64,000 bases of DNA from Trichoplax sp. H2 (lineage: Eukaryota), in assembly GCA_003344405.1 (NCBI GenBank), contig NOWV01000001.1, forward strand, positions 1,488,001-1,552,000, read 5' to 3'. The notes beneath the pieces are model-generated. The model had not been told where the DNA came from, did no database searches, and saw only the letters and a program-made list of their open reading frames with translations. Of this stretch, positions 1,964-15,613 are shown piece after piece. Position 1 is the first letter of the stretch. Each line of letters begins with the position of its first letter. The position numbers and the translations under genes are program-made.

Positions 1964-2040
1964 TACACGATTACTAGACTATCCGTTACTACAATCCAAT
2001 CGAGTTTGATCTCGAGTTAATAACTTCATTATATCATGTA
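1964..2040 (-). promoter_or_regulatory. SECIS element of the decayed deiodinase pseudogene (GAGA apical variant)
   Basis: Minus strand reads TACATGAT-ATA-ATGAA-GTTATTAACTC-GAGA-TCAAACTCGATTGG-ATTGTAGTAAC-GGAT-AGTCTAGTA-ATCGTGTA. This gives an AUGA/GA core, helix II, an apical mini-stem and helix I. Homologous to the SECIS at 6271 and 12753; lies ~330 nt 3' of the pseudogene. Confidence 0.8.
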
Positions 2041-2372
2041 GAACTATCTACATCAGCAAATTCAGTCTACAAATTGATAATGACATTCCATTACGCAATT
2101 ATTATTATTCTACAATTAGATCGTCTAGTATAAAAAGATGGGTGCTATTTCCTGTATACAATATACTTGTAATGTAATCCTTTTTTTTTGGTTTGCCTTG
2201 CAGCAATTTGACAATCCTAGAATATTTTTAGATTAATCTCATTGATCAATTGAAATTAAAAGACAACGCTCGAAGCTTGCCTGTCTTTACCAGTATGATT
2301 GGAATCAATTTCGTTTTCACAGTATTAAGTGAAATGATCGATTTTGGCATGGCAGACAAGACGTTGCAATTT

Positions 2373-3170
2373 GGATGATTTTTGTCCTTGTGCGACTTGT
2401 TCATGAATCGTTTCCTGTCACCTGGACTGTGTAAGTCAATGGACCTGGATTACCAAAATAAAAGTTTCAATTCTATACTGTATATGTATCATTTCGGCAG
2501 TACAGCATCGACCAGTTGATGACGCCATTTGCACGCGAATGGGCAAACACCGTAATTAAAATTAGAAATAATGGATCAAAATTTTTTGGAGCCTATTTTT
2601 ATTCTAACATCTAATCTTTCGGACTGAAATAAAGAAGAGACTGAGATTAATTGCTAGCAGTGACCATTGATCATCTGTATATTAGCTTCGTTAATATAAA
2701 AAATATTTCATTGATGATGATAATTAAGTCGTGATGCAAGATCGACAAAGTGATTCAGTTTTCATGGCCATGGTGGTCAAGAGTACGATCCAAAGTTGAA
2801 GAAGTGAATCTTTTGTAATTCAAAGTTATCACCACGAAGCATAAATAATTATAAATTAATCAGTCGATGGAAGCTGCATTTTCTATATAATCATGTATGA
2901 TTGTAGGTTAATTAATTCATTAATTCATAAGACGTGGTTAAATTATTGAATAAGAAATCCCATTTACTATTACACTACATAGACGTGAACTATTCATGGA
3001 TGATTTGAAATTTTTGCTAGGAGTTGTCATTAGTTCCAATTGGAATTGTAATGGACTAGAGTTTATGCAATAGTATTGAATAACGATAGAAAGAGTTATA
3101 AATAATACTCAAATTGACACTAACAACGTTGACGATAATATCGCATTTCAACCAGTAGAATCATTTGGAG
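2373..3170 (-). pseudogene. Decayed iodothyronine deiodinase-like selenoprotein pseudogene
   Basis: Minus-strand translation KIHFFNFGSYS-U(TGA 2779-2777)-PPWP*KLNHFVDLASRLN...YINEAN, later QSERLDVRIKI, DAVLPK*YI, YFGNPGPLTY, QVAQGQKSS. Colinear with the intact paralogs but has premature stops and frameshifts. The 5' boundary is approximate (FYWLK resembles YGWFK). Confidence 0.85.
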
Positions 3171-3536
3171 CTCGCCCTGTGAGCAATCCAGCCCATCTTT
3201 TTCACCTCATCAGCTTGCAACCAGGTTTACAAAGATGGGTAGATGTGAAGCGAGTGACAAGAAATGGGTTAAAAGTAGGAAATTACAACGGCAATAAAAT
3301 AGACTATTCACACAAATAACTAATTTTGCTTTAGTTTACATATGGATTGAATTTGCATCATGATTATCAATTGCTTGTGAAGACGTCCGGTGCATATTGA
3401 AATGTCCACGACACCAGTTGGTCATACCGGTTGCACAGTAGAAGTGAGTACAATAGTATGCTATACCGTCGATGTACTGAACACGGGGGTAAGGGTTGAA
3501 AGCTTTTCACCGCCAGACGTTTCGCGTGACATTGTG

Positions 3537-3908
3537 TTACTTCTTATTGGCATTGGAATTGGCATTGGAATTTTTAATAAGTCGTCGCCTGATGGTGCTG
3601 GGATGTAAAGTTTTGCCTGTTTTATCCTTTAACATCGCTGCTAATTCCCCACTAGCTTTAAATGGTGACTCTTTCACCGCTTCCAGGATCAAATCGTCCT
3701 CCTCGGGGGTGGTTTTGCGTTTCCTACCCGTCTTGAATTTTTGAATTTTAAAGGAACGCTGGCCTTGAAAGCGTTTGACAATCCGTTGAATAGTGCGTTT
3801 ACTAACTTTCATTCGATTAGCGATCTTCTGTCGAGTCCAGCCAGCTTCATCAAATGCCATAATCTGTGCTCTATCACAGCATGTGAGTAGCTTATGTTTA
3901 GGAGCCAT
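3537..3908 (-). CDS. Tc1/mariner-transposase-derived DNA-binding protein (paired-like bipartite HTH only, no DDE domain)
   Basis: MAPKHKLL...DRAQIMAFDEAGWTRQKIANRMKVSKRTIQRIVKRF...TGRKRKTTPEEDDLILEAVKESPF.ASGEL...TLHPSTIRRRL matches the Tc1 PAI-GRPR-RED layout. The ORF stops right after RED. TATATAAA on the minus strand at 4027-4034. Confidence 0.75.
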   Translation of the reverse strand: MAPKHKLLTCCDRAQIMAFDEAGWTRQKIANRMKVSKRTIQRIVKRFQGQRSFKIQKFKTGRKRKTTPEEDDLILEAVKESPFKASGELAAMLKDKTGKTLHPSTIRRRLIKNSNANSNANKK

Positions 3909-4156
3909 CAAGTTTAAAGCGATTAGTAGCAATTGGACAAGGAAAGCAATGGCAGAAGGAAGAAACGCCGCTTGACCCAGTGCTAAGGAAGGACAAGATT
4001 TTGCGCACGACGGATCATTGCGGTGCTTTATATACCTTGCTATCCGTACAAGTGGACACGCTATGGTACACTCTGACAGCCAACTGTATAGTATTCTATG
4101 CTGACGTTGTCATGCCATGTGCTAAGCTTGGCACTGGATGGTATGGCCAATTGCAG

Positions 4157-4500
4157 AAATGATGTCACCTGGAGATCGGGTTATTGGCTAATTAGGGAAA
4201 ATGATGTCACTATGGCGTGCCGAGAGTACTGCCTTCAGCTGCAAGGGCGTTGTCACGGGTGACATCCTTTTTGGTGGATACGGCCCATACCGTACTACGT
4301 GTTGGCCCACCGTACTGTACTGTACTGTAGAGAGTCAGTACTAAAAGAAAGAACGATGAGACTGCGCACAGTACTCTGCTTGAACTTTACAGTACGGTAC
4401 TATACGGTGTAGCCTGTCCACTAAAAAGATGATGTCACCCGTGGCGGTTCACTGGTGAGCTGTGGGCACTACTTGAGGCATGGAATGGCGACATCATTTT
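4157..4500. repeat. Cluster of five AAATGATGTCAC-like motifs in both orientations
   Basis: Copies at 4157-4168, 4198-4210 and 4426-4438 (forward), and 4259-4270 and 4488-4500 (reverse), in a GC-elevated patch between the HTH ORF and the first deiodinase. Confidence 0.7.
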
Positions 4501-5126
4501 CAATAAATTCATCGCTCAGATTGACCTCATGAACAATATCATTGGTCACAGGACTAGTTATGGGCAACTCTAGTTTACAGTAATATTAAGGTTAAGCAAC
4601 AGTTAGCCTGGTTCAACTGAAGCCAATCAGGTCATCCGATTGCAACGCTCTGTAGCAGCTGATCTGGAGCCATATCTGACTGATTGCAAATGTTGCAGTT
4701 AAGTTGGATAACGACAACGATTGCGCAAGTGCACATACCAGTGGCAGGTATATAGTAACAGTACTGTACGTCATCATCAAAAATATTTCTGACTGTAAAG
4801 CGTAAACATCAACCCCAGAAATATCTTGGGCTATAGTCGACTTTGCATATAGCTAATAATTCCTAATAATTCTACGAATGATTAGCAATCGCAAGACCTA
4901 CAGTACATCGTAACAACAGTCTAGTAGACACTAAAAGCCGTCAAAAAGAAATGGAGAATTAACTACTTGTTGTTATACATCGATGTAGTATAGTATTTGC
5001 TCATCAAGCCTACTCCCGCTTACCACCAACATAACACTTGTGTACAGTACACGGTAGCACACCCAACTCTGCCCAAGCTCGCCTTCAATATTCAGAATAC
5101 TGTAGTTCTTAATCCATTGGGGGTAA

Positions 5127-5939
5127 ATGGCAATGCATCAGAAAAAGGAAACCAGCCTTAGCTGGTTCATGTCTGCATATCTCATGATGTATGGATTATT
5201 CAAACTTATCAAATACTTTTTAACATTAAGGTATTACTATCCTGCTTCTACAAGCCATCTTCAGAAACGGATGAGACCTATCGTGCGAAAAAACTTGCAA
5301 GATCAAAAAGTAACCTTATGGTCTTATTTAAGATCCAATTTTTTAAATAAGCAAAATCTTCTCTTTCTTGGAGAAAGGTTTAATTTTGCCTCAATAAACT
5401 TTCTTAAAGTTGGACAACAAGCTCCTAAAGGACGATTATTTACACTTGATCAGCAACAAACTGATTTACAAAACATTTTTAATCAAAGCGCCAAAAAAAT
5501 TCATGTCTTAAACTTCGGATCCTATTCTTGACCTCCATTTCGATATGAAATCGATCGCTTTATCGATCTCGCTGGTCGATTTAGTAATCGTGTTCAATTT
5601 AACACTATTTATATTAAGGAAGCTCATGCCGCCGATGAATGGGCACTACCAGTAACGAATGAAAATCTTGGCGTATGCTTTCTTCAGCCTAAGAAATTAG
5701 AAGCTAGAATAAACATAGCTAAACAATTTATTAATCGTTTCCAATTTCAATTACCATTTTTTATCGATTGTATTGAAAATGACACGATGAAAGCATACGA
5801 CGCTGTACCAGAACGATTATATGTAGTCGATGACGGAAAAATCGTTTATTCAGGCGGTCCAGGTCCATTTGCTTATAGCCTAGATGACATGGAACAATTT
5901 TTAGAGAAATACGTCGTAGAAGGACAGAAATCGTCGTAA
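5127..5939 (+). CDS. Iodothyronine deiodinase-like selenoprotein, copy A (intronless, 270 aa, Sec TGA at 5529-5531)
   Basis: Reading through the TGA gives NFGSYS-U-PPFRYEIDRF...IYIKEAHAADEW...FIDCIENDTMKAYDAVPERLYVVDDGKIVYSGGPGPFAY...GQKSS* (TAA 5937-5939). All deiodinase motifs present, hydrophobic N-terminal segment, downstream SECIS. Confidence 0.95.
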
Positions 5940-6270
5940 GATTCGGATAAACTATACGGATAATTTAAATATTTATATGTGTCATTCGAGTTACCACTAA
6001 TTGCAATAGATAGCATATACATTACAGGCTTGGTTGAATTGTCCTTTCAACTTCAGTAACTAAATAGTGATGGCCTTAAGAAATTCCAGGGTTGTCGTAC
6101 AATGTTGAGCTGTATGACGAAACAAGAAATTGTATTTAAAGCGTATTACGCACAGGAAAATAACTATTAATTATTATTATTTTAAAATTTATATCTTGTA
6201 ACGTACTAATGGATGTGCAATGCAATGCACATTATGCATTCGTGGCTTTGTTGGTGATTAGATAGCTTTT

Positions 6271-6346
6271 ACGTGATATAATGAAGTTATTTACTTAAAA
6301 CCAAACTGGACTTGGATTGTAATAACCGAAGATCAATTAATCATGT
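6271..6346 (+). promoter_or_regulatory. SECIS element (type II, canonical AAAA) of deiodinase copy A
   Basis: ACGTGAT-ATA-ATGAA-GTTATTTACTT-AAAA-CCAA(ACTGGAC)TTGG-ATTGTAATAAC-CGAA-GATCAATTA-ATCATGT. Confidence 0.88.
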
Positions 6347-6956
6347 ACATACGTATATATGTCTATCTTTACCCAACACGCTGGCTTACATTGCTTTTAG
6401 CGAGTTAAAATGCAATTACAGATATCTAATGATCTATTGAATGAAATTCTTTTCAGCTATTGACACGTATTGTATTTTTAGTTAGTCATAGCTTGTTATC
6501 AATGTCACCCTTGCAACGAGTGGTAATAAAGATACCAACAAAAATTCCTTCAGGCGAGTTATTATCTATTTGCATTACAATAATTTAATAAGCAATGAGA
6601 AAATATTGCTATCGACAGTCGATTTACATAAAGTGATTTCGTAAATATTGACAAGTTGCAATACTAAAAGTAACATAGCTAAGCTTGTAGTAAATTTGAT
6701 GTGATTACTCTAGATTCCGTATGACGGCAGAAATCTTGTGAACTACTCTTTTTCGTTAAAGTGAAAAGAAAATTCGACAGATCATGTTTAAAAATACAAC
6801 TACGTGTAAATTCAATTCATTGAAGTTAAAATACAACAAAATGTTACGACGATACCAATAAAATTATGTGTATATCCCAAATTGCAAAGCTGTACCATTT
6901 GAAATTTATTCAGTGCAATAGTAAGAGGAAGGGTGTATATTATAAGTTTCAGTGAA

Positions 6957-7010
6957 GGATTGTGGAATCGTGGACGCTCGCTTCCATGCGAGCGGGTTCG
7001 AATAGTGCTT
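6957..7010 (+). pseudogene. tRNA-like / SINE-head relic
   Basis: A-box-like TGGAATCGTGG (6963-6973), perfect 7-bp hairpin CGCTCGC-TTCCAT-GCGAGCG, B-box-like GGTTCGAAT (6995-7003). No acceptor stem or T-stem can be formed. Confidence 0.4.
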
Positions 7011-8235
7011 GTAAAATATCGATTTATTTAATTTTAAATATCTTTATTTATAGTACCGATGAAGAATAAGCAAACAGGGAAAACGTATTTTAGCTAACGC
7101 TTCATTTAAAGTAGTGTATGTTCCGAAAACATGGACGAATATACTTACATCGGTTATTTAAGATTTAGAATTAGGATAAAATAAATTTATAATTTTGAAC
7201 GACTTTTAGTCTAGGATAGACTATACTGTATTACATAAAGTTTATTAATCTTTATAATATAAATTAAATAAGATTAGAGTAGAGTAGATTATACAAATAG
7301 AGGTGCAAATACTTACTAGTAACTTAGTACTGTCTGTAGATTCGTGGCACTGTACATCTACCGCAAGTGAATTATAAGACGGACATAAACAATGGGAAAT
7401 CTAGTAATGCTTAAAGGAAAGACCTCAGGAATACAATGATATATTCCTAGTTTAGAAAGACTAGATAGCAGAAAAACTTAGTACAGTAATTACCATTTAT
7501 CATCTTTTTCAGTCCTAGTTCTGCAAGACTCTACATCTACAGTACGAATCTCTCCCAAGTCCCTTAATACTTCTCTTCAATATCTCCATGTTATGCACTA
7601 TACAGTATCTAAGCAACTAGAAAGTTCTAAATAGCTGAAAAGTCTTTATATGCTATTAAGATCAGGTAGTTACTAGACATGAAAATTAAAAAATATTGAT
7701 TACGTTATAGTGCATAAAGTCTTTCTGTAACTTAATTCTTCCTAATATAGTTGTATGCGTACATGGATACTCGCATACGCATATACAGTATATAACCACT
7801 ATGTAGTCAGTCATTAACCTTAACTACATTTTCTTACTGCTTTAATCAGTTCCTAAAATAGTTCATGCATCACTAGTTCTACGAGTAATTCTAAAATCGT
7901 TGGAATTGCGTGTGAAAATTTATCATATCAGTGTTAGTTTACTAGAACAGTTTTAGCATAAAACTTTAAAGTCGAAACCAGATTATTTGGCAAATACTCC
8001 AATGAACCAAACTCTTTTAAAGAGATTTCTCGACGATATCTTTATTTGTGGATTACTTTGAAAATTAGATTTACGATAGGATTATGATAAATAAAGGTAA
8101 TACAGTATACTCTATAAATATTTTGACATTTAATCAATTACAGTTTATCTATATCCTTACTTAGACAAGAGTAGTTATATTTAGTTCGCTAGATGGAGTA
8201 GTATACGTAGATTACTATGTTGAGATAGATAAATA

Positions 8236-8317
8236 TACAGGATTAAAATAATAGATCATCAGTTGTTACAATTCAATCAAACTTGGTCTCAAGTAAAAAC
8301 TTCATTTAAGTTCTGTA
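8236..8317 (-). promoter_or_regulatory. SECIS element of deiodinase copy B (GAGA apical variant)
   Basis: Minus strand TACAGAACTTAA-ATGAA-GTTTTTACTT-GAGA-CCAAGTTTGATTGA-ATTGTAACAAC-TGAT-GATCTATTATTTTAATCCTGTA. Confidence 0.82.
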
Positions 8318-8592
8318 AACGTATCTGTCATTAAGAAGTCTACGAATACTTCTCCATTCTGATACTACAAAATTTAAAGTAATTCCGTAATTACTGATAT
8401 AAATGCAATTTAGTTCTCATGTTAGCCTTGTAGCTCATGGCTATTAATTAATTTAAAAAAAGTAGAATAACATTGAAAGACTAATATCGAGCTAGGATTT
8501 TAAGTTTCTATCGAATTGCATTCCATAGTATTTAATCGTGTCTTAAATGACTCGTATAAGTATTTAAATTATCCGTAGAGTTTATCCGAATC

Positions 8593-9411
8593 TTACGACG
8601 ATTTCTGTCCTTCTACGACGTATTTCTCTAAAAATTGTTCCATGTCATCTAGGCTATAAGCAAATGGACCTGGACCGCCTGAATAAACGATTTTTCCGTC
8701 ATCGACTACATATAATCTTTCTGGTACAGCGTCGTATGCTTTCATCGTGTCATTTTCAATACAATCGACGAAAAACGGTAATTGAAATTGGAAACGATTA
8801 ATAAATTCTTTAGCTATGTTTATTCTAGCTTCTAATTTCTTAGGCTGAAGAAAGCATACGCCAAGATTTTCATTCATTAATGGCATTGCCCATTCATCGG
8901 CAGCATGGGCTTCCTTAACATAAATAGTGTTAAATTGAACACGATTACTAAATCGACCAGCCAGATCGATAAAGCGATCGATTCCATATCGAAATGGAGG
9001 TCAAGAATAGGATCCGAAGTTTAAGACATGAATTTTTTTGGCGCTTTGATTAAAAATGTTTTGTAAATCAGTTTGTTGTTGATCAAGCGTAAATAATCGT
9101 CCTTTAGGAGCTTGTTGTCCAACTTTAAGAAAGTTTACAGTAGCGAAAGGGAACTTCTCGCCAAGATGAACAAGAGATTGCTTATTAAAAAGATTGGATC
9201 TTAGAAAATGCCAAGTAGATATTTTTTGACCTTGCAGATTTTTCTCACATTCAGATTTCATCTTTTTCGGATTATGATAGGGATTATCGATAGTAGGGTA
9301 GTGGTACTTTATTGTTAAAATACATTTGAGTAATCTGAAAAATCCAATGATCATGAGATAGGTAGACTTGAACCAGCCATAGGAGGTTTCCTTTTTCTGT
9401 CCAGTCGCCAT
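8593..9411 (-). CDS. Iodothyronine deiodinase-like selenoprotein, copy B (intronless, 272 aa, Sec TGA at 9003-9001)
   Basis: ORFs 9001-9420 and 8593-8886 are one frame joined through the TGA: MATGQKKETSYGWFK...NFGSYS-U-PPFRYGIDRF...IYVKEAHAADEW...GPGPFAY...GQKSS*. ATG at 9411-9409. Confidence 0.95.
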
Positions 9412-11093
9412 TGGCTCCAATTATTAAATGATACCGTTATTGATTCACTGAATGAATATTAATAGTGTAGTATACTGTGTGTAAGCGTATACTGAAAGTA
9501 ACAGCTTTGATCAGTTCTATTAGTTTTGGATATGACTCTGACTTTACCTGCTAAACTAGTGCTTAGCCATTATAGTGTCGATTAGACGATTAGACGATGA
9601 CGAAATTTCTAGCCTATCATTATTACCGCTGTATTCGTAATTGCGTATCTATCTATCTATCTACTCATTCTACTGTACAGTACAGTACAGTACAGCAGCG
9701 ATTCGTAGAATGGAGGGGTTTACCTAGTGTTAGTACTGTATTGACACGACACACGAATGTAGCTTATAATATTAGACTAGTTTATTAAGAGAGAAGAACA
9801 GTCAAGAGTGACTTCTAGATGAAGACTTGTTAAGAGTACTCCAATATACCATAGAGATATTTACTTATCCTATTCCTAGGATACAGAAAACTAACTTTAA
9901 CTTATCTAGCTGTATAGGAATGCTATTGACTCAGCTGCTGCATGCTGTGCATGATAGCTGGTGGACGATAAACTATGTTCTACCACGACTAGAATACAGC
10001 ACATGAACACTAGTAGAACCCGCTGACGATATACTTCGCTTATTGTATACAGTCGGTGTGAGGGTACGTATACTTGAACTTGTTTACTTTACCTCATACA
10101 ATCGCTATAAAATAGCTGTAAAGTAAACTAATTGTTTAACAATTTATCTGTAAACTAGCTCTATTAACAGATAATTTACAGCTACTATATGATTGTTCAT
10201 GAAGTCAAACTACAATGTCTTTTTCTACTGTACGTAGATGTTACGATACGTAAGCTTGTTCTAATGAGGACCAGTTTTTAGTTAGTTAGTCGGTTAGTTA
10301 GTCAATTAGTTTGTCAATTGCTATTAAATTGTCAAGACTATAATCTTGATTGTCAAGATTTCTTCAGCAATAAATAGTAGTCAATCCCTGACTACCGCGT
10401 CTACACTATCAGTGAAGCTATAATTATACTATAGTATTCAGTCGTTGGAACTAAATTATTTGGTGATACAGCTAATCTCGCCTCTTAAAGTCAGTAAGAG
10501 GCGTTCTTCATAAGCATTGGCGTGTGTAGATTACTTTGTCTCTAGTGGTGTGTGACAGTAGAATATAGAATAAATAAATTTTATTTTATACAGTACTGTA
10601 CCAAAGCTGAATCTAATGGTGTGGATTAGTGTCGATGGCATAAGCAATAGGAGTAGTAAAGTGCAAAATAAGAATAGTAAAGTAAATGAAAATAAGATAA
10701 ATGAAAGCATGTATGGAATACAGTCGAAAGTATATCCGATAATTTTACAGCTACTAAAATATGATAATTTATCTGAATATTACATATATTTCATGAATAA
10801 CAGCTGAAATTTATATAGTGATGTCATAATTTGTCGTAAACTAATTTTGAAATTATCTGATGTTGTGTTTGGATAAATTATCATTTAGCGTAGTAGCTGT
10901 AGATAAATTGTCATAAAGGTGACAATTAATGATAATTTATTTCAACATTACATGTACAGTACTGTATTTAATGAGCAGTCGCTGAATATATATGGTGTTT
11001 GTCACAATTGTCATATCCTAGCCATAAAATTATCTTATTATTTATGCCAAGAATATCATATATCGTACTACTGTAGTATTGTAAGACATGAGC

Positions 11094-11900
11094 TGTGGTA
11101 TTAAACGGAAAAAGTTCCTAGACATATCATCTCTAATTCAGTAATATACTTGTTCAGTATTCGTAAATTACATCACATCCCGATGGTTAAGATAGGATAT
11201 TACCTCACTTTCTTATTTATACGAAGTGCTACACTTTTTAATTCTATTCTGCTTGTTTATAGTTACAATCTATGAACGACTAATGTTATAGGTTAGATAT
11301 TTCTCTATGAGTCGTTGAGGCTTTCGCTTTAGTCGATTAGATCTTTGTATAGAAATAGCAGTTTCAATAGCTGGTGCTTGAGATAACTCGGTGCCTTAGA
11401 AGTCTCTTGATTCTGTACAGTCGTGGGATGTACTCGTGTTTCGCGTTCATTATTTTCTGCCACAGGCATCTTATATATTCATTCGGAATTTGTTTTTGTT
11501 CGAAAAGTCTGCTCTCATGGCTTCAGATGGGTGAAGGAATCGACAGTTCTGTGAACGTACCTTACCACGATATATCTTACCAATAGGAGTTTGCATCATG
11601 TAAGATCGAGGTTCTGTTGTTTCCTTTAACACAATTCCAGGTGTCCATTGAAGGCTATGAGAGTCTTGCATTGCAACAGCTGTACCGGGTTTCAGAGTTG
11701 ATAGGTGTTTTCGTCCACGTTTATCATAGTAGTGTTTTTGTCTTTCCTGGCGTTGCTCTAAGATCTTCTTAGTTTGAGGATCTTTGAATTTGTAAAAATG
11801 AGGTAGTTGAGAACGTATTGATGCTCCAAACAAAAGTTCTGCCAGACTGGGCAAATTAGTATCAATCGGAGTCGATCTAAAATACAACACTGCACTTCTT
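11094..11900 (-). mobile_element. Gypsy-type (K02A2.6-like) LTR retrotransposon relic: integrase C-terminal region and possible short 3' LTR
   Basis: AVLYFRSTP...SLAELLFGASIRSQLP...QKHYYDKR...LKPG...WTPGIV...PRSYMM, then a typical pol end KRKPQRLIEK (~11335-11300). Possible LTR TGTGATGTA...TAATACCACA at 11177-11094 (weak). Confidence 0.75.
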
Positions 11901-11943
11901 TTATTGACTATTACACGCTTTAATACGTACACGCAGTTGAAAC

Positions 11944-12626
11944 TATTCTGAAATACTAGAGTTGCGTGTACTTCTTACTTTAGCATTACCGTACTATAGC
12001 AGAATTACTTTAGTATACTCTACAGCTATACAAAATCTTTTAAAAGCATCTTTATTTGCTGACTATATACTAGTACAGTTAGTTTGCTTTGCAACACGAT
12101 AGTAATAGTGCNNNNNNNNNNNNNNNNNNNNAAGGCATAACTCAGTCGTTTCAATTTCAAAGAAATCAATTAGGCCTACAATCTGGACCTGAAATGATGA
12201 CATCCCCCATCCTGCTGTCTTTCCGTTTAGTATGTTTTAACCATAGAGTATACAATATCGTGCAAAATGTCTGACTCCAATAAAATCAGGGTGGATGATT
12301 TAATGCGTGTATGCAGTATAATAATTAAAATCAGATAAAGTTATGTGCATCAGTACATATAATATGATCAGTCAGGGAAGTATATTACGCGAAGTATAAC
12401 CAGCTAGGGACATACTAATATAATATGATAGATAGGTCACTAGCTCTACAAACTACAGTATTCTGAAATACTAGAGTTGCGTCTACTTCTTACTTTAGCA
12501 TTACCGTACTATAGCAGAATTACTTTAGTATACTCTACAGCTATACAAAATCTTTTAAAAGCATCTTTATTTACTGACTATATACAAGTACGGTTAGTTT
12601 GCTTTGCAACATGATTGTAATAGTGC
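11944..12626 (+). repeat. 168-bp direct duplication (11944-12111 / 12459-12626) straddling an assembly gap
   Basis: Near-identical copies with a few substitutions; N-gap at 12112-12131. Confidence 0.9.
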
Positions 12627-12752
12627 TAACGAATAATCCAAAGAATTTTAAAATTTATCAATTATAGATCTTTATTAATTCGTTAATATAACTGGAATAA
12701 CTATTAATTTTGAATAAAGCAACATAAACTTGTATGCTGAGATAGATATCGT

Positions 12753-12830
12753 ATACATGACTAGTAGATTATCGGTTATTGCAATCCAATCGAAGTCGGT
12801 TTTAAGCAAATAACTTCATTATATCATATA
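12753..12830 (-). promoter_or_regulatory. SECIS element (canonical AAAA) of truncated deiodinase copy C
   Basis: Minus strand TATATGAT-ATA-ATGAA-GTTATTTGCTT-AAAA-CCGACTTCGATTGG-ATTGCAATAAC-CGAT-AATCTACTA-GTCATGTA. Confidence 0.88.
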
Positions 12831-13241
12831 AACGTAAATCTATCTATTTCATGAACACGTTTACGAGTGTACCTCGGTTTCAAATCTACCCCCAAAATAA
12901 AAACTATTATTGTATCCGGGGCTAAGAGGATAACAATTTAATCCTTACTTTAGTTGTACAATCGTGTCAAGCAATTATATCCGTTGTAAGATAGAAAGTG
13001 GGTCAAGGTCTCTTCAACCTGCTATAAACCGTAATTAGGGTTATTCTCAGTCAGTTAACGAGCTGATGTAGATTGCTTTCTTCTAATAATATTAAATACT
13101 GCAAGTTGAAAAAGATTAATACTGAACTACACGTTTAAGTTTCTATGTAATTCTATTTTACAGTATCTAGTTATTTCTTATAAATGACTTGTATAAACAT
13201 TTGAATTATCCGTATAGTTTATCCGAATCTTATAACAGTTT

Positions 13242-13760
13242 CTATTTTTCTACAACGTATTTCTCTAAAAATTGTTCCATGTCATCTACACTATAAGCAA
13301 ACGGACCTGGACCGCCTGAATAAACGATTTTTCCGTCATCGACTACATATAATCGTTCTGGTACAGCGTCGTATGCTTTCATCGTTTCATTTTCAATACA
13401 ATCGATAAAAAACGGTAATTGAAATTGGAAACGATTAATAAATTCTTTAGCTATGTTTATTCTAGCTTCTAATTTCTTAGGCTGAAGAAAGCATACGCCA
13501 AGATTTTCATTCATTAATGGCATTGCCCATTCATCGGCGGCATGAGCTTCCATAATATAGATAGTGTTAAATTGAACACGATTACTAAATCGACCAGCCA
13601 GATCGATAAAGCGATCGACTCCGTATCGAAATGGAGGTCAAGAATAGGATCCGAAGTTTAAGACATGAATTTTTTTGGCGCTTTGATTAAAAATGTTTTG
13701 TAAATCAGTTTGTTGCTGATCAAGTGTAAATAATCGTCCTTTAGGAGCTTGTTGTCCAAC
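13242..13760 (-). pseudogene. 5'-truncated deiodinase-like selenoprotein, copy C (Sec TGA at 13640-13638)
   Basis: Open frame VGQQAPKGRLF...NFGSYS-U-PPFRYGVDRF...IYIMEAHAADEW...YVVEK*. Identity to copies A/B stops abruptly at 13760, and there is no in-frame ATG upstream before a stop. Confidence 0.85.
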
Positions 13761-13761
13761 G

Positions 13762-13989
13762 GGAGCAAGGATACAAATTGCTAAAGAATTCGTTGATCGT
13801 TTCGATTACAAATTGCCATTTTTTGTCGATACTATGGAAGGTGATACCATGAAGGCCTATGGCGCTCAACCTGAAAGATTGTATGTGGTTAAAGATGGGA
13901 AAATTGCTTATGAAGGTGGACCAGGTCCATTCTGCTATAGTATAGACGATTTAGAACAATTTTTAGAGAAGTTGATCGCCAACAAGTAA
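13762..13989 (+). pseudogene. 3' fragment of a more divergent deiodinase-like gene, copy D
   Basis: GARIQIAKEFVDRFDYKLPFFVDTMEGDTMKAYGAQPERLYVVKDGKIAYEGGPGPFCYSIDDLEQFLEKLIANK*. Lacks the Sec region and is absent from the ORF track. Confidence 0.88.
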
Positions 13990-14620
13990 TTGCTATCTCG
14001 ACCGTTACATTTAACTTGGATCATATCATTTCTTCTCATTAGCTAGTCTGGAATTGAATCCACAGAAAATATGGCACAAAGTATAAGCCTTCGTCTTAGT
14101 ACACTTTGTAATGGTTATCTTGATTAAATTCCCTGTTTCAAACACACTCTGCATTGAATACCTGTTCTAACTACTTCTAATAAATTAATATTCATCGTGA
14201 CTGAAATTTAGACGGTTGCTAAAATGTATATCTGTTATAAAGGCCGTGAAATTTTTTATCGCAACACTTCGATACGATGCCCCTTTTTTGCCGACCTTAA
14301 GTTATCCCCCATTTCGATAAAGTCTAAATTCGTACGTTATAAATTTAAGAATGCGCTAGCTAATCTACTTTACTGTTTATCAGCTAGATATTGATAGCAA
14401 TAATAATATTTAAACTATTCTAGGCGGTTTACTTAACCATTGATGGTGCATTAACAGTTGCAATCGCGCAACAACGTTGTATTGCACTCTGTTTTTCTAC
14501 TATGAAAATTACTATTAGACGTATTTGTATTTATCTCTTATGATAAGTAATATATTAGTAGTAATGGAAATATGATCGATTCCTACAATGATAGTTAAGG
14601 CTTATTGTTGCTGTTTATAT

Positions 14621-14693
14621 AAGTAGAATTGCATGAAGTTATAGCTTGAGACCAATCTATTTGGATAGTAATAACTGAGGAAAAATTCTATTT
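14621..14693 (+). promoter_or_regulatory. SECIS element of copy D (GAGA apical variant)
   Basis: AAGTAGAATT-GC-ATGAA-GTTATAGCTT-GAGA-CCAA(TCTAT)TTGG-ATAGTAATAAC-TGAG-GAAA-AATTCTATTT. Confidence 0.85.
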
Positions 14694-15613
14694 GCTTATA
14701 AATTATGCAATGTAAGTGCTTTTCTGTGATGTATCAGGATAAAAGATATTAAAATAATAAAAGGCAAGAAACTAAATTTTTAATCCCTTAATCTTAAAAC
14801 TTATGGCTGGATAACCTAATAATCATTGTAGGTGCTGTTTAGAGATTAGCTGCGTCGTTCTACGTATTTTGCTATGGAATGGAAATCTTTCCTATTAGAT
14901 CGGAGTAACAAATTGACATTTGATGGGACACTGGTATGAATGTAGGCAATTTTTCAACATAACCCCTTATGTGTAAATTTTATACAGTGCAAAATAAATC
15001 CAAGAATCAAAATTTTTAACTTTATGCACATATACGAACATCTTTACGACCTAGATTACTAGATTCTACAAAATTATAACGTTCGTTCTGCAACGATGTA
15101 GTTAGAATTGCTCAGTTAAATTCTTTAGCAATTCGATTTTAACTCAAGAGTTAACCAATTCAAGATTTTTGCAAATTTAATCATAGATACGTATGAAGAA
15201 CGATAGAACTACATATTTGTTTAATACAGAGGAAAAGCTCGCGTAGCATGTTGAAGTATCGTATGATAACATTAGAGAATAAATAATAGCCTTGGAAAGC
15301 CAGAGATACAGGTGAGATTAAGCTGACTTCATAAATTATCTGAAAGGCTATTAGCTTAAATAACTTATACAACGAAGCTGATGTTAATGCGATAGCTGTA
15401 CTATTTTAGTTGTGTTGTTAAATATTTACCTTATCAAAGAATTACTGTTTATTTCAACAAAATTTTAAATTAAATTTGATTACCAGTAGAAAAAAGCTGT
15501 GCAAAGTCGTGTTCTCGTTAATAATCATACCCTGTTTATTATATAATTTTCAATGACATCCTAATATCAATAAACATCGCCTGTAATTATGAAAATATAG
15601 CTAATCCGCGTTA

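Follow-up and report, generated by a model that had tools for sequence, protein, structure and literature searches.

A putative GAGA-type selenocysteine insertion element behind a deiodinase-like selenoprotein gene of Trichoplax

After the kink-turn core, the adenines of the apical AAR motif are the most conserved feature of eukaryotic selenocysteine insertion sequence (SECIS) elements. A locus of the placozoan Trichoplax sp. H2 raises the question of whether a SECIS hairpin with GAGA in place of AAAA at this site can still direct the insertion of selenocysteine (Sec). The locus lies on contig NOWV01000001.1 (assembly GCA_003344405.1), where we analyzed a stretch of 64 kb (positions 1,488,001 to 1,552,000; hereafter the window, whose own numbering is used throughout). 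Deiodinase-like selenoprotein genes and gene remnants form a rearranged cluster in the first 15 kb, and each of the five copies (A, B, C, D, and P) is followed by a SECIS element, named here after its copy. Elements A and C carry AAAA in the apical bulge, and elements B, D, and P carry GAGA. On balance, we favor the reading that the GAGA form is a putative working SECIS in Trichoplax and that selenocysteine is inserted at UGA codon 137 of gene B.

The five elements share a 5' half that can be written as ATGAAGTT, followed by 4–6 nt and CTY-RARA-YC. This pattern gave five matches in the 64-kb window and no match in each of 100 shuffles. Two of the elements are on the plus strand, namely SECIS A (6281–6330, AAAA at 6297–6300), which lies 341 nt after the stop codon of gene A, and SECIS D (14633–14679, GAGA at 14648–14651), which lies 643 nt after the D stop. 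The other three are on the minus strand: SECIS B (8258–8305, GAGA at 8290–8287) 287 nt after the stop codon of gene B, SECIS C (12771–12819, AAAA at 12803–12800) 422 nt after the C stop, and SECIS P (1981–2029, GAGA at 2013–2010). An earlier sequence-only reading of this DNA had placed GAGA at the same coordinates in B, D, and P, and the pattern matches showed all of them to be correct. The only elements retrieved by a covariance model of the five cores were these five, with scores of 56.8–72.1 bits, and the next match scored 15 bits. All five elements occupy a 3' untranslated region (3'UTR) position on the same strand as the coding sequence, A and B behind intact open reading frames (ORFs) with a Sec-UGA codon and C, D, and P behind gene remnants. 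Of the three GAGA elements, only SECIS B follows an intact gene.

When the five cores were folded together without guidance, RNAalifold returned AUGA, a helix II of 8 bp, a 6-nt 5' bulge of the form UU-RARA, a mini-stem of 4 bp, and the 3' GA, which is the type-2 SECIS that we had drawn by hand. Over the five cores, 96.6% of the pair cells were paired (97.4% for the eight pairs of helix II and 95% for the four pairs of the mini-stem), compared to 8.6–50% with slid partners. One pair was compensatory, being A-U in A, B, and P, G-C in C, and G-U in D. With five sequences, covariation was not significant: shuffles reached the observed values in 140–249 of 500 cases, and the helix II score was reached by 149 of 500. 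The kink-turn quartet (ATGA and the 3' GA) formed invariant columns in all five copies, and the tetrad started 11–12 nt after AUGA, at the canonical AAR site of type-2 SECIS elements. Positions 2 and 4 of the tetrad were A in every copy, and positions 1 and 3 were either A or G. An unpaired AA(R) or CC at 10–13 nt past the quartet was present in A and C and missing in B, D, and P, so we class the latter three as a variant rather than as standard type-2 SECIS elements.

The sequence-only reading had described the core, helices, and mini-stem as retained in the GAGA copies. This description held for the invariant AUGA/GA core and for helices that were mostly paired, but it passed over mismatches in two of the copies. 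In B, helix II has a U.C mismatch in the manual register (a gap opposite C in alignment A2), and the mini-stem, whose lowest pair is a C.A mismatch, is left with 3 bp; in D, helix II has an A.A mismatch. When the upper part was folded alone, the minimum-free-energy structures of A, C, and D were of the type-2 form and left the tetrad unpaired. For D the canonical fold was the clear minimum, and its tetrad was unpaired with probabilities of 0.91–0.97. As candidates for helix I below the internal loop, free and partly constrained folds of 131-nt stretches gave basal helices in A, D, and P, whereas B had an outer helix; the constraint was not properly enforced for B and was mis-anchored for C.

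The gene in front of SECIS B was intact. With TGA read as Sec (U), single-exon deiodinase-like ORFs were obtained for gene B (8593–9411, minus strand, 272 aa) and gene A (5127–5939, plus strand, 270 aa). Each has one in-frame TGA (9003–9001 in B and 5529–5531 in A), located within the site FGSYS-U-PPF, which we take to be the active-site motif of the deiodinase family, with its thioredoxin fold. Both products are predicted members of this family, since they carry Sec in the FGSYS-U-PPF motif and scored above the cut-off of 27 for the Pfam profile T4_deiodinase (PF00837), with 123.6 bits for B and 128.4 bits for A. Except for a stretch around the Sec codon that it lacks, a database protein that its source names as a type I iodothyronine deiodinase of Trichoplax sp. 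H2 has the same sequence as A.

Gene B was also transcribed through its SECIS. We compared run X19, recorded as RNA, and run X15, probably also RNA, which come from two studies with two organism labels, with the DNA runs X1 and X4. Contigs of X19 and X15 covered gene B and its 3'UTR, from 8019 (X19) or 8157 (X15) to 9500, with the SECIS included; the contigs that contain SECIS B spanned 8169–8590 in X19 and 8157–8326 in X15. Both runs had zero depth in intergenic DNA (6421–7967 in X19 and 6778–8086 in X15), where X1 and X4 were continuous. These uncovered stretches were used as a silent-stretch control and not as transcript ends. The X15 contig 8157–8326 differed from the window at 8187 and 8216 only, and thus the transcript in this run carries GAGA. 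A poly(A) signal AATAAA of gene B (8041–8046, minus strand) is located 22 nt before the X19 contig end at 8019 and is probably the signal actually used. The proposal that GAGA serves an intact gene was therefore upheld, in that the B ORF is intact with its Sec-UGA codon and is transcribed through the element. In X15, two contigs represented the part of the B 3'UTR at 8297–8436. One matched the window exactly, and the other, which reaches into the 5' end of SECIS B, had 6 differences and may come from another allele or from an additional paralog.

Genes A, B, and C are mosaics. From codon ~94 to ~20 nt past the stop codon they are 92–100% identical, the identity of the N-terminal third is 45–75%, and their 3'UTRs have 0–62% identity per 60-column window, with the SECIS standing out as an island of 68–78%. 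Changes were assigned to a lineage by codon states unique to one copy inside the homogenized A/B/C tract, and a neutral nonsynonymous share of 0.795 was used as the reference. Eight codon changes were unique to B, of which six were synonymous and two were I>V, at codons 163 and 213 in the numbering of A (p = 0.0014); downstream of the Sec codon, B had four synonymous and two nonsynonymous changes (p = 0.0185). Eleven changes were unique to C (five synonymous and six nonsynonymous, including Q267stop) and seven to A (two synonymous and five nonsynonymous). The N-terminal 93 codons of B, which lie outside the homogenized tract, were open at a dN of 0.35 and a dS of 0.63. Stop codons make up 7.8% of intergenic codons, which gives a chance of ~5e-4 for 94 open codons. 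As far as codon counts can tell, these results show that the coding sequence of B is under purifying selection, including downstream of the Sec codon. Because the states counted for B are unique to it, they were not copied from A or C, and a paralog outside the window could be their source.

No second canonical SECIS was found in the B 3'UTR, so this challenge to the sequence-only reading failed. A loose SECIS scanner yielded 308 candidates over the whole window, mostly AU-rich noise, and was used only inside the B 3'UTR (8592 to 7800, minus strand). Within the part of this region covered by RNA, the GAGA hairpin was the sole AUGA/GUGA-type candidate with at least seven helix-II pairs. A GTGA candidate at 7872 and CUGA candidates at 7930 and 7809 were rejected, being located beyond the last RNA contig end at 8019. 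Searches of the B 3'UTR with Rfam and with the five-copy covariance model retrieved nothing else.

The GAGA tetrad had been called recurrent. We found that its presence in three copies is neither chance nor a set of independent events, because the five elements are paralogs. The five cores were roughly equidistant, with 77–84% identity outside the tetrad (46 core columns), and GAGA was unchanged in three copies that differ at ~20% of the other core positions. A split of A and C from B, D, and P was backed by three columns of alignment A2, namely the two G/A columns of the tetrad and column 47. Three further informative columns each favored a different grouping (columns 12, 13, and 26 conflict with 17, 19, and 47), and the tree of the five cores, drawn without an outgroup, was star-like. 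We therefore regard GAGA as one inherited state, and a single ancestral change in either direction would explain its distribution.

Column 47 (window positions 6327, 8261, 12774, 14676, and 1984 in A, B, C, D, and P) immediately precedes the 3' GA of the quartet. It tracked the bulge, being C with AAAA (A and C) and U (B and D) or G (P) with GAGA. This association may come from common ancestry or from a functional link of the core with the apex.

The diverged paralogs carry less weight than had been assigned to them. Intact gene B and the persistence of GAGA in other copies had both been taken as signs of function. The first stands, with B intact and transcribed, but D is a fragment without a Sec codon and P is decayed. 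Since D and P are gene remnants, B alone bears on function, and there is one living witness rather than three. Copy C kept a canonical AAAA SECIS and its Sec codon despite the loss of its first 94 codons and a premature stop; with a good SECIS retained on a dead gene, such an element alone does not mark a living gene at this locus.

Strict pattern searches had been expected to overlook the GAGA form, and they did. The published primary pattern of SECISearch, NTGA_(10-13)_AA or CC_(15-39)_GA (PMC2375036, PMC1802603), was passed by A and C and failed by B, D, and P, because the latter have no AA or CC at the required distance. The Rfam model SECIS_1 (RF00031) scored A and C only, at 22.5 and 19.2 bits, both below its gathering score of 35, and gave no match to P in a 14-kb search. 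Given that the canonical elements A and C also fell below the gathering score, SECIS_1 is insensitive to these AU-rich hairpins. Weak Rfam matches to C/D-box snoRNAs were seen on the SECIS hairpins (1954–2036, 8235–8314, 12732–12832, and 14580–14730), all of them sub-threshold. We take them to reflect a shared kink-turn-like AUGA...(C)UGA signature, and none came near its gathering score.

How could a GAGA element work? In the reading that we favor, the five elements are paralogous type-2 SECIS hairpins, three of them with one inherited variant that has G for A at bulge positions 1 and 3. SBP2 would bind the unchanged AUGA/GA kink-turn core, and with the quartet untouched this binding should be normal, judging from the role of the quartet. 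Helix II would set the purine bulge at the usual distance of 11–12 nt. Either the invariant adenines at positions 2 and 4 or the unpaired purine stack would then make the apical contact with eEFSec, which is described as binding the apical region in papers that cite a ribosome structure of 2022 (PMC11881835, PMC11431864). Sec would be inserted at codon 137 of B, possibly less efficiently given the weak helix. The evidence for such insertion is indirect, namely the selection on B past its UGA and the transcription of the gene.

Several observations weigh against this reading, and most of them suit a serious rival, in which SECIS B is weakened or dying and gene conversion keeps gene B presentable. 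In the rival scenario GAGA is a crippled SECIS: the AAR adenines were lost in the common ancestor of B, D, and P, D and P have been dying and B is dying slowly, conversion from working copies such as A restores the B coding sequence, and the B mRNA gives mostly a truncated product of 136 residues. The AAR motif has been called essential, with mutations that prevent Sec incorporation (PMC2792357, PMC2919729), and a deletion of AA serves as a control (PMC1802603). The B hairpin is the least stable of the five and has two irregularities; its SECIS-type upper fold reached -0.6 kcal/mol, compared to -3.2 kcal/mol for a competing ACUUG-AGAC-CAAGU hairpin, in which ACUUG/CAAGU pairing takes up the first G of GAGA. 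Rfam SECIS_1 detected the AAAA copies and gave no match to B or D in 151-nt searches with E up to 10. Two of the three GAGA copies, D and P, belong to dead genes, which fits a defective lineage too. The tract homogenized across A, B, and C, at 92–100% identity, blurs the selection signal, the counts are small (8 changes), and apparently selected states could have reached B by gene conversion, with paralogs outside the window as one possible source. Both organism labels of the transcript data are only ~0.6% from the window (10 differences in a 1628-nt X1 contig), so their agreement on GAGA says little about constraint. Against the crippled-element scenario, the B-unique changes were six synonymous to two conservative, whereas truncated C had five to six with a stop codon among them, and the B states could not have been copied from A or C. 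The N-terminal third of B, outside the converted tract, is still open at its dS of 0.63, and the SECIS persists as a conserved island in an otherwise unalignable 3'UTR. Moreover, the AAAA copy C is also on a dead gene, so that the death of copies does not track the motif. We consider the crippled-element scenario less probable than a working element, although it deserves to be taken seriously.

Two other explanations are improbable to different degrees. The working adenines could be others, with GAGA as a neutral passenger. In this explanation they are the AA that lies two nucleotides beyond GAGA (CCAA in B and D and UCAAA in P), which would be presented unpaired after opening of the mini-stem or in a different fold of the apex. 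An AA directly after the YC that follows GAGA is indeed present in all three GAGA copies, the B mini-stem has just 3 bp, and in P the minimum-energy apex is an alternative hairpin UCGAG/CUCGA with the loop AUCAAA, 0.3 kcal/mol better than the mini-stem. However, this AA lies 17–18 nt from AUGA, outside the published range of 10–13 nt, and is paired in the competing fold of B, while the minimum fold of D has CCAA paired and GAGA unpaired. Element A has CCAA in addition to AAAA, which makes the downstream AA a family-wide feature of the mini-stem. We thus hold a role for these adenines to be quite unlikely. That the Gs are sequencing errors, or the copies mis-assembled, we find scarcely credible. 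The window does contain two gaps of 20 N, a 168-nt repeat flanking one of them, and an odd head-to-head junction of copies C and D, but SECIS B was covered by contigs of four independent public runs, the X15 contig across it had only the two differences given above, and the same tetrad is found at three separate loci with different flanks.

A working GAGA element would extend a known range of SECIS variation. The apical motif is described as AA "with few exceptions" (PMC4989117) or as a "run of As" that is not invariable (PMC2647825). The exceptions with CC include mammalian SelM, SelO, and TR3 (PMC2761289, PMC3316567) and DsbA of Ciona savignyi (PMC2874816), and CC is the sole natural exception named in these papers and permitted by search tools. 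In reporter assays, human SelO and Trxr3 were among very weak elements, SelM not being so listed (PMC2761289, PMC3316567, PMC2874816), and Sec insertion into SelO was demonstrated by metabolic labelling (PMC2761289). A survey of ciliates predicted a SECIS without the adenine triplet, StyGPx5, and graded it lower (PMC7409322). In the parts of the literature that our search covered, we found no eukaryotic SECIS whose apical motif contains G, which does not prove that there is none.

Copies A and C are ordinary members of the canonical type-2 class. The GAGA elements resemble this class in their 3'UTR position behind a Sec-UGA gene, the AUGA/GA quartet, the bulge 11–12 nt away, and the mini-stem, and differ from it in the GAGA bulge of B, D, and P. 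With the CC-type elements they share a natural, lineage-restricted replacement of the apical AA in an otherwise standard hairpin. The CC elements, however, swap both adenines for cytosines and are permitted by SECISearch, while GAGA keeps purines throughout and changes every second A to G; Sec insertion has been shown experimentally for some CC elements, and GAGA is known from sequence. Variants of the core are also on record, with GGGA-type SECIS elements in SelT of Toxoplasma and Neospora and GUGA_AA in sponges and green algae, and motif usage is reported to follow the organism more than the protein family (PMC2647825, PMC3473315). Like these core variants, GAGA would be a lineage-specific exception at supposedly invariant SECIS positions. 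Theirs lie in or beside the SBP2-binding quartet, whereas here the quartet is canonical and the apex varies.

The published deiodinase gene clusters of Trichoplax adhaerens offer a further comparison. Jiang et al. (2012, PMC3473315) reported 11 deiodinase selenoprotein genes in T. adhaerens, and in a cluster of six of them only three "strong" SECIS elements were found. The copies lacking a SECIS were treated as inactive, and the text of that study, as far as it was available to us, makes no mention of a GAGA form. Missing SECIS elements are the picture expected if GAGA elements were overlooked, the present window being not established as the same cluster.

We also scanned metagenomes with a degenerate pattern of the family and obtained 44 loci, all with at most 24 bits in the five-copy covariance model, compared to 57–72 bits for the true copies. 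Five of the 44 had GAGA, and among these only one locus (L005) had a passable helix. It was rejected as a GAGA SECIS, since it coincides with the stop codon of a gene and the ORF translations of its contig led us to judge the contig bacterial. The scan found no placozoan relatives and is thus uninformative on GAGA elsewhere. Two other metagenome contigs picked up by the degenerate pattern had an apparently well-formed SECIS, from other organisms, with GAAA at the bulge. One (L030, 2941–2985, minus strand) had a helix II of ~10 bp and a mini-stem of 5 bp by eye, and 14 pairs in a scan that allowed two irregularities; the other (L008, 1053–1104, plus strand) had a perfect 7-bp helix II by eye.

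The remaining gene copies of the cluster are in various states of decay. Copy C (13242–13760, minus strand) is a 5'-truncated gene that corresponds to residues 95–265 of A, with its Sec-UGA at 13640–13638 and the premature stop at codon 267. Copy D (13762–13989, plus strand) is a C-terminal fragment (approximately residues 176–264) with 62% identity to A; it lacks the region of the Sec codon, lies head to head with copy C, and matched the T4_deiodinase profile at positions 169–236 of 237 with 61.2 bits. Copy P (2373–2815, minus strand), delimited by tblastn pieces and three-frame translation, is a decayed deiodinase pseudogene that retains FGSYS-TGA-PP, followed by many in-frame stops. With A as the query, tblastn matches extended over 13760–13248 (minus strand) in C, 13726–13980 (plus strand) in D, and, in fragments, 2815–2373 (minus strand) in P. 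Copies C and D meet at ~13726–13765. C is truncated at codon 95, just where the 92–100% identical tract has its 5' edge, which suggests that the block from this codon to just past the stop has been copied or converted as a unit.

Between P and A, at 3540–3908 on the minus strand, lies a stretch that encodes the N-terminal, DNA-binding portion of a transposase of the Tc1/mariner type (Pfam HTH_32 and HTH_Tnp_Tc3_2). It is probably a transposon remnant, as no catalytic domain appears in the ORF list. Of the two 20-N gaps in the window, one (12112–12131) is located exactly where the first copy of the 168-nt direct repeat stops. The two copies of this repeat (11944–12111 and 12459–12626) are 96% identical and may represent an assembly duplication around the gap rather than biology.

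What the locus means depends on the state of SECIS B. If the element is dead, the locus is a clean case of gene conversion keeping a selenoprotein pseudogene alive-looking. If GAGA works, this natural element, in which G occupies two of the four bulge positions and which serves a gene under selection, would be a ready probe of the bases needed for the eEFSec contact, and it would account for Trichoplax deiodinase genes described as lacking a SECIS. A wider interpretation, which we put forward tentatively and as a whole, is that GAGA may be the older and fully functional state of the placozoan deiodinase SECIS family, AAAA having arisen later in A and C, and that GAGA elements may serve several of the Trichoplax deiodinase genes reported without a SECIS. 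In the same tentative interpretation, the apical requirement would be a purine bulge with A at alternate positions rather than AA, the eEFSec contact would tolerate G at least in placozoans, and tools that demand AA or CC would undercount the selenoproteomes of early-branching animals. A working GAGA element would argue for a relaxed AA/CC filter in the annotation of non-bilaterian selenoproteomes. For selenocysteine decoding and for selenoproteome annotation alike, the GAGA variant suggests that the "essential" adenines of the SECIS may be less strict than assumed.

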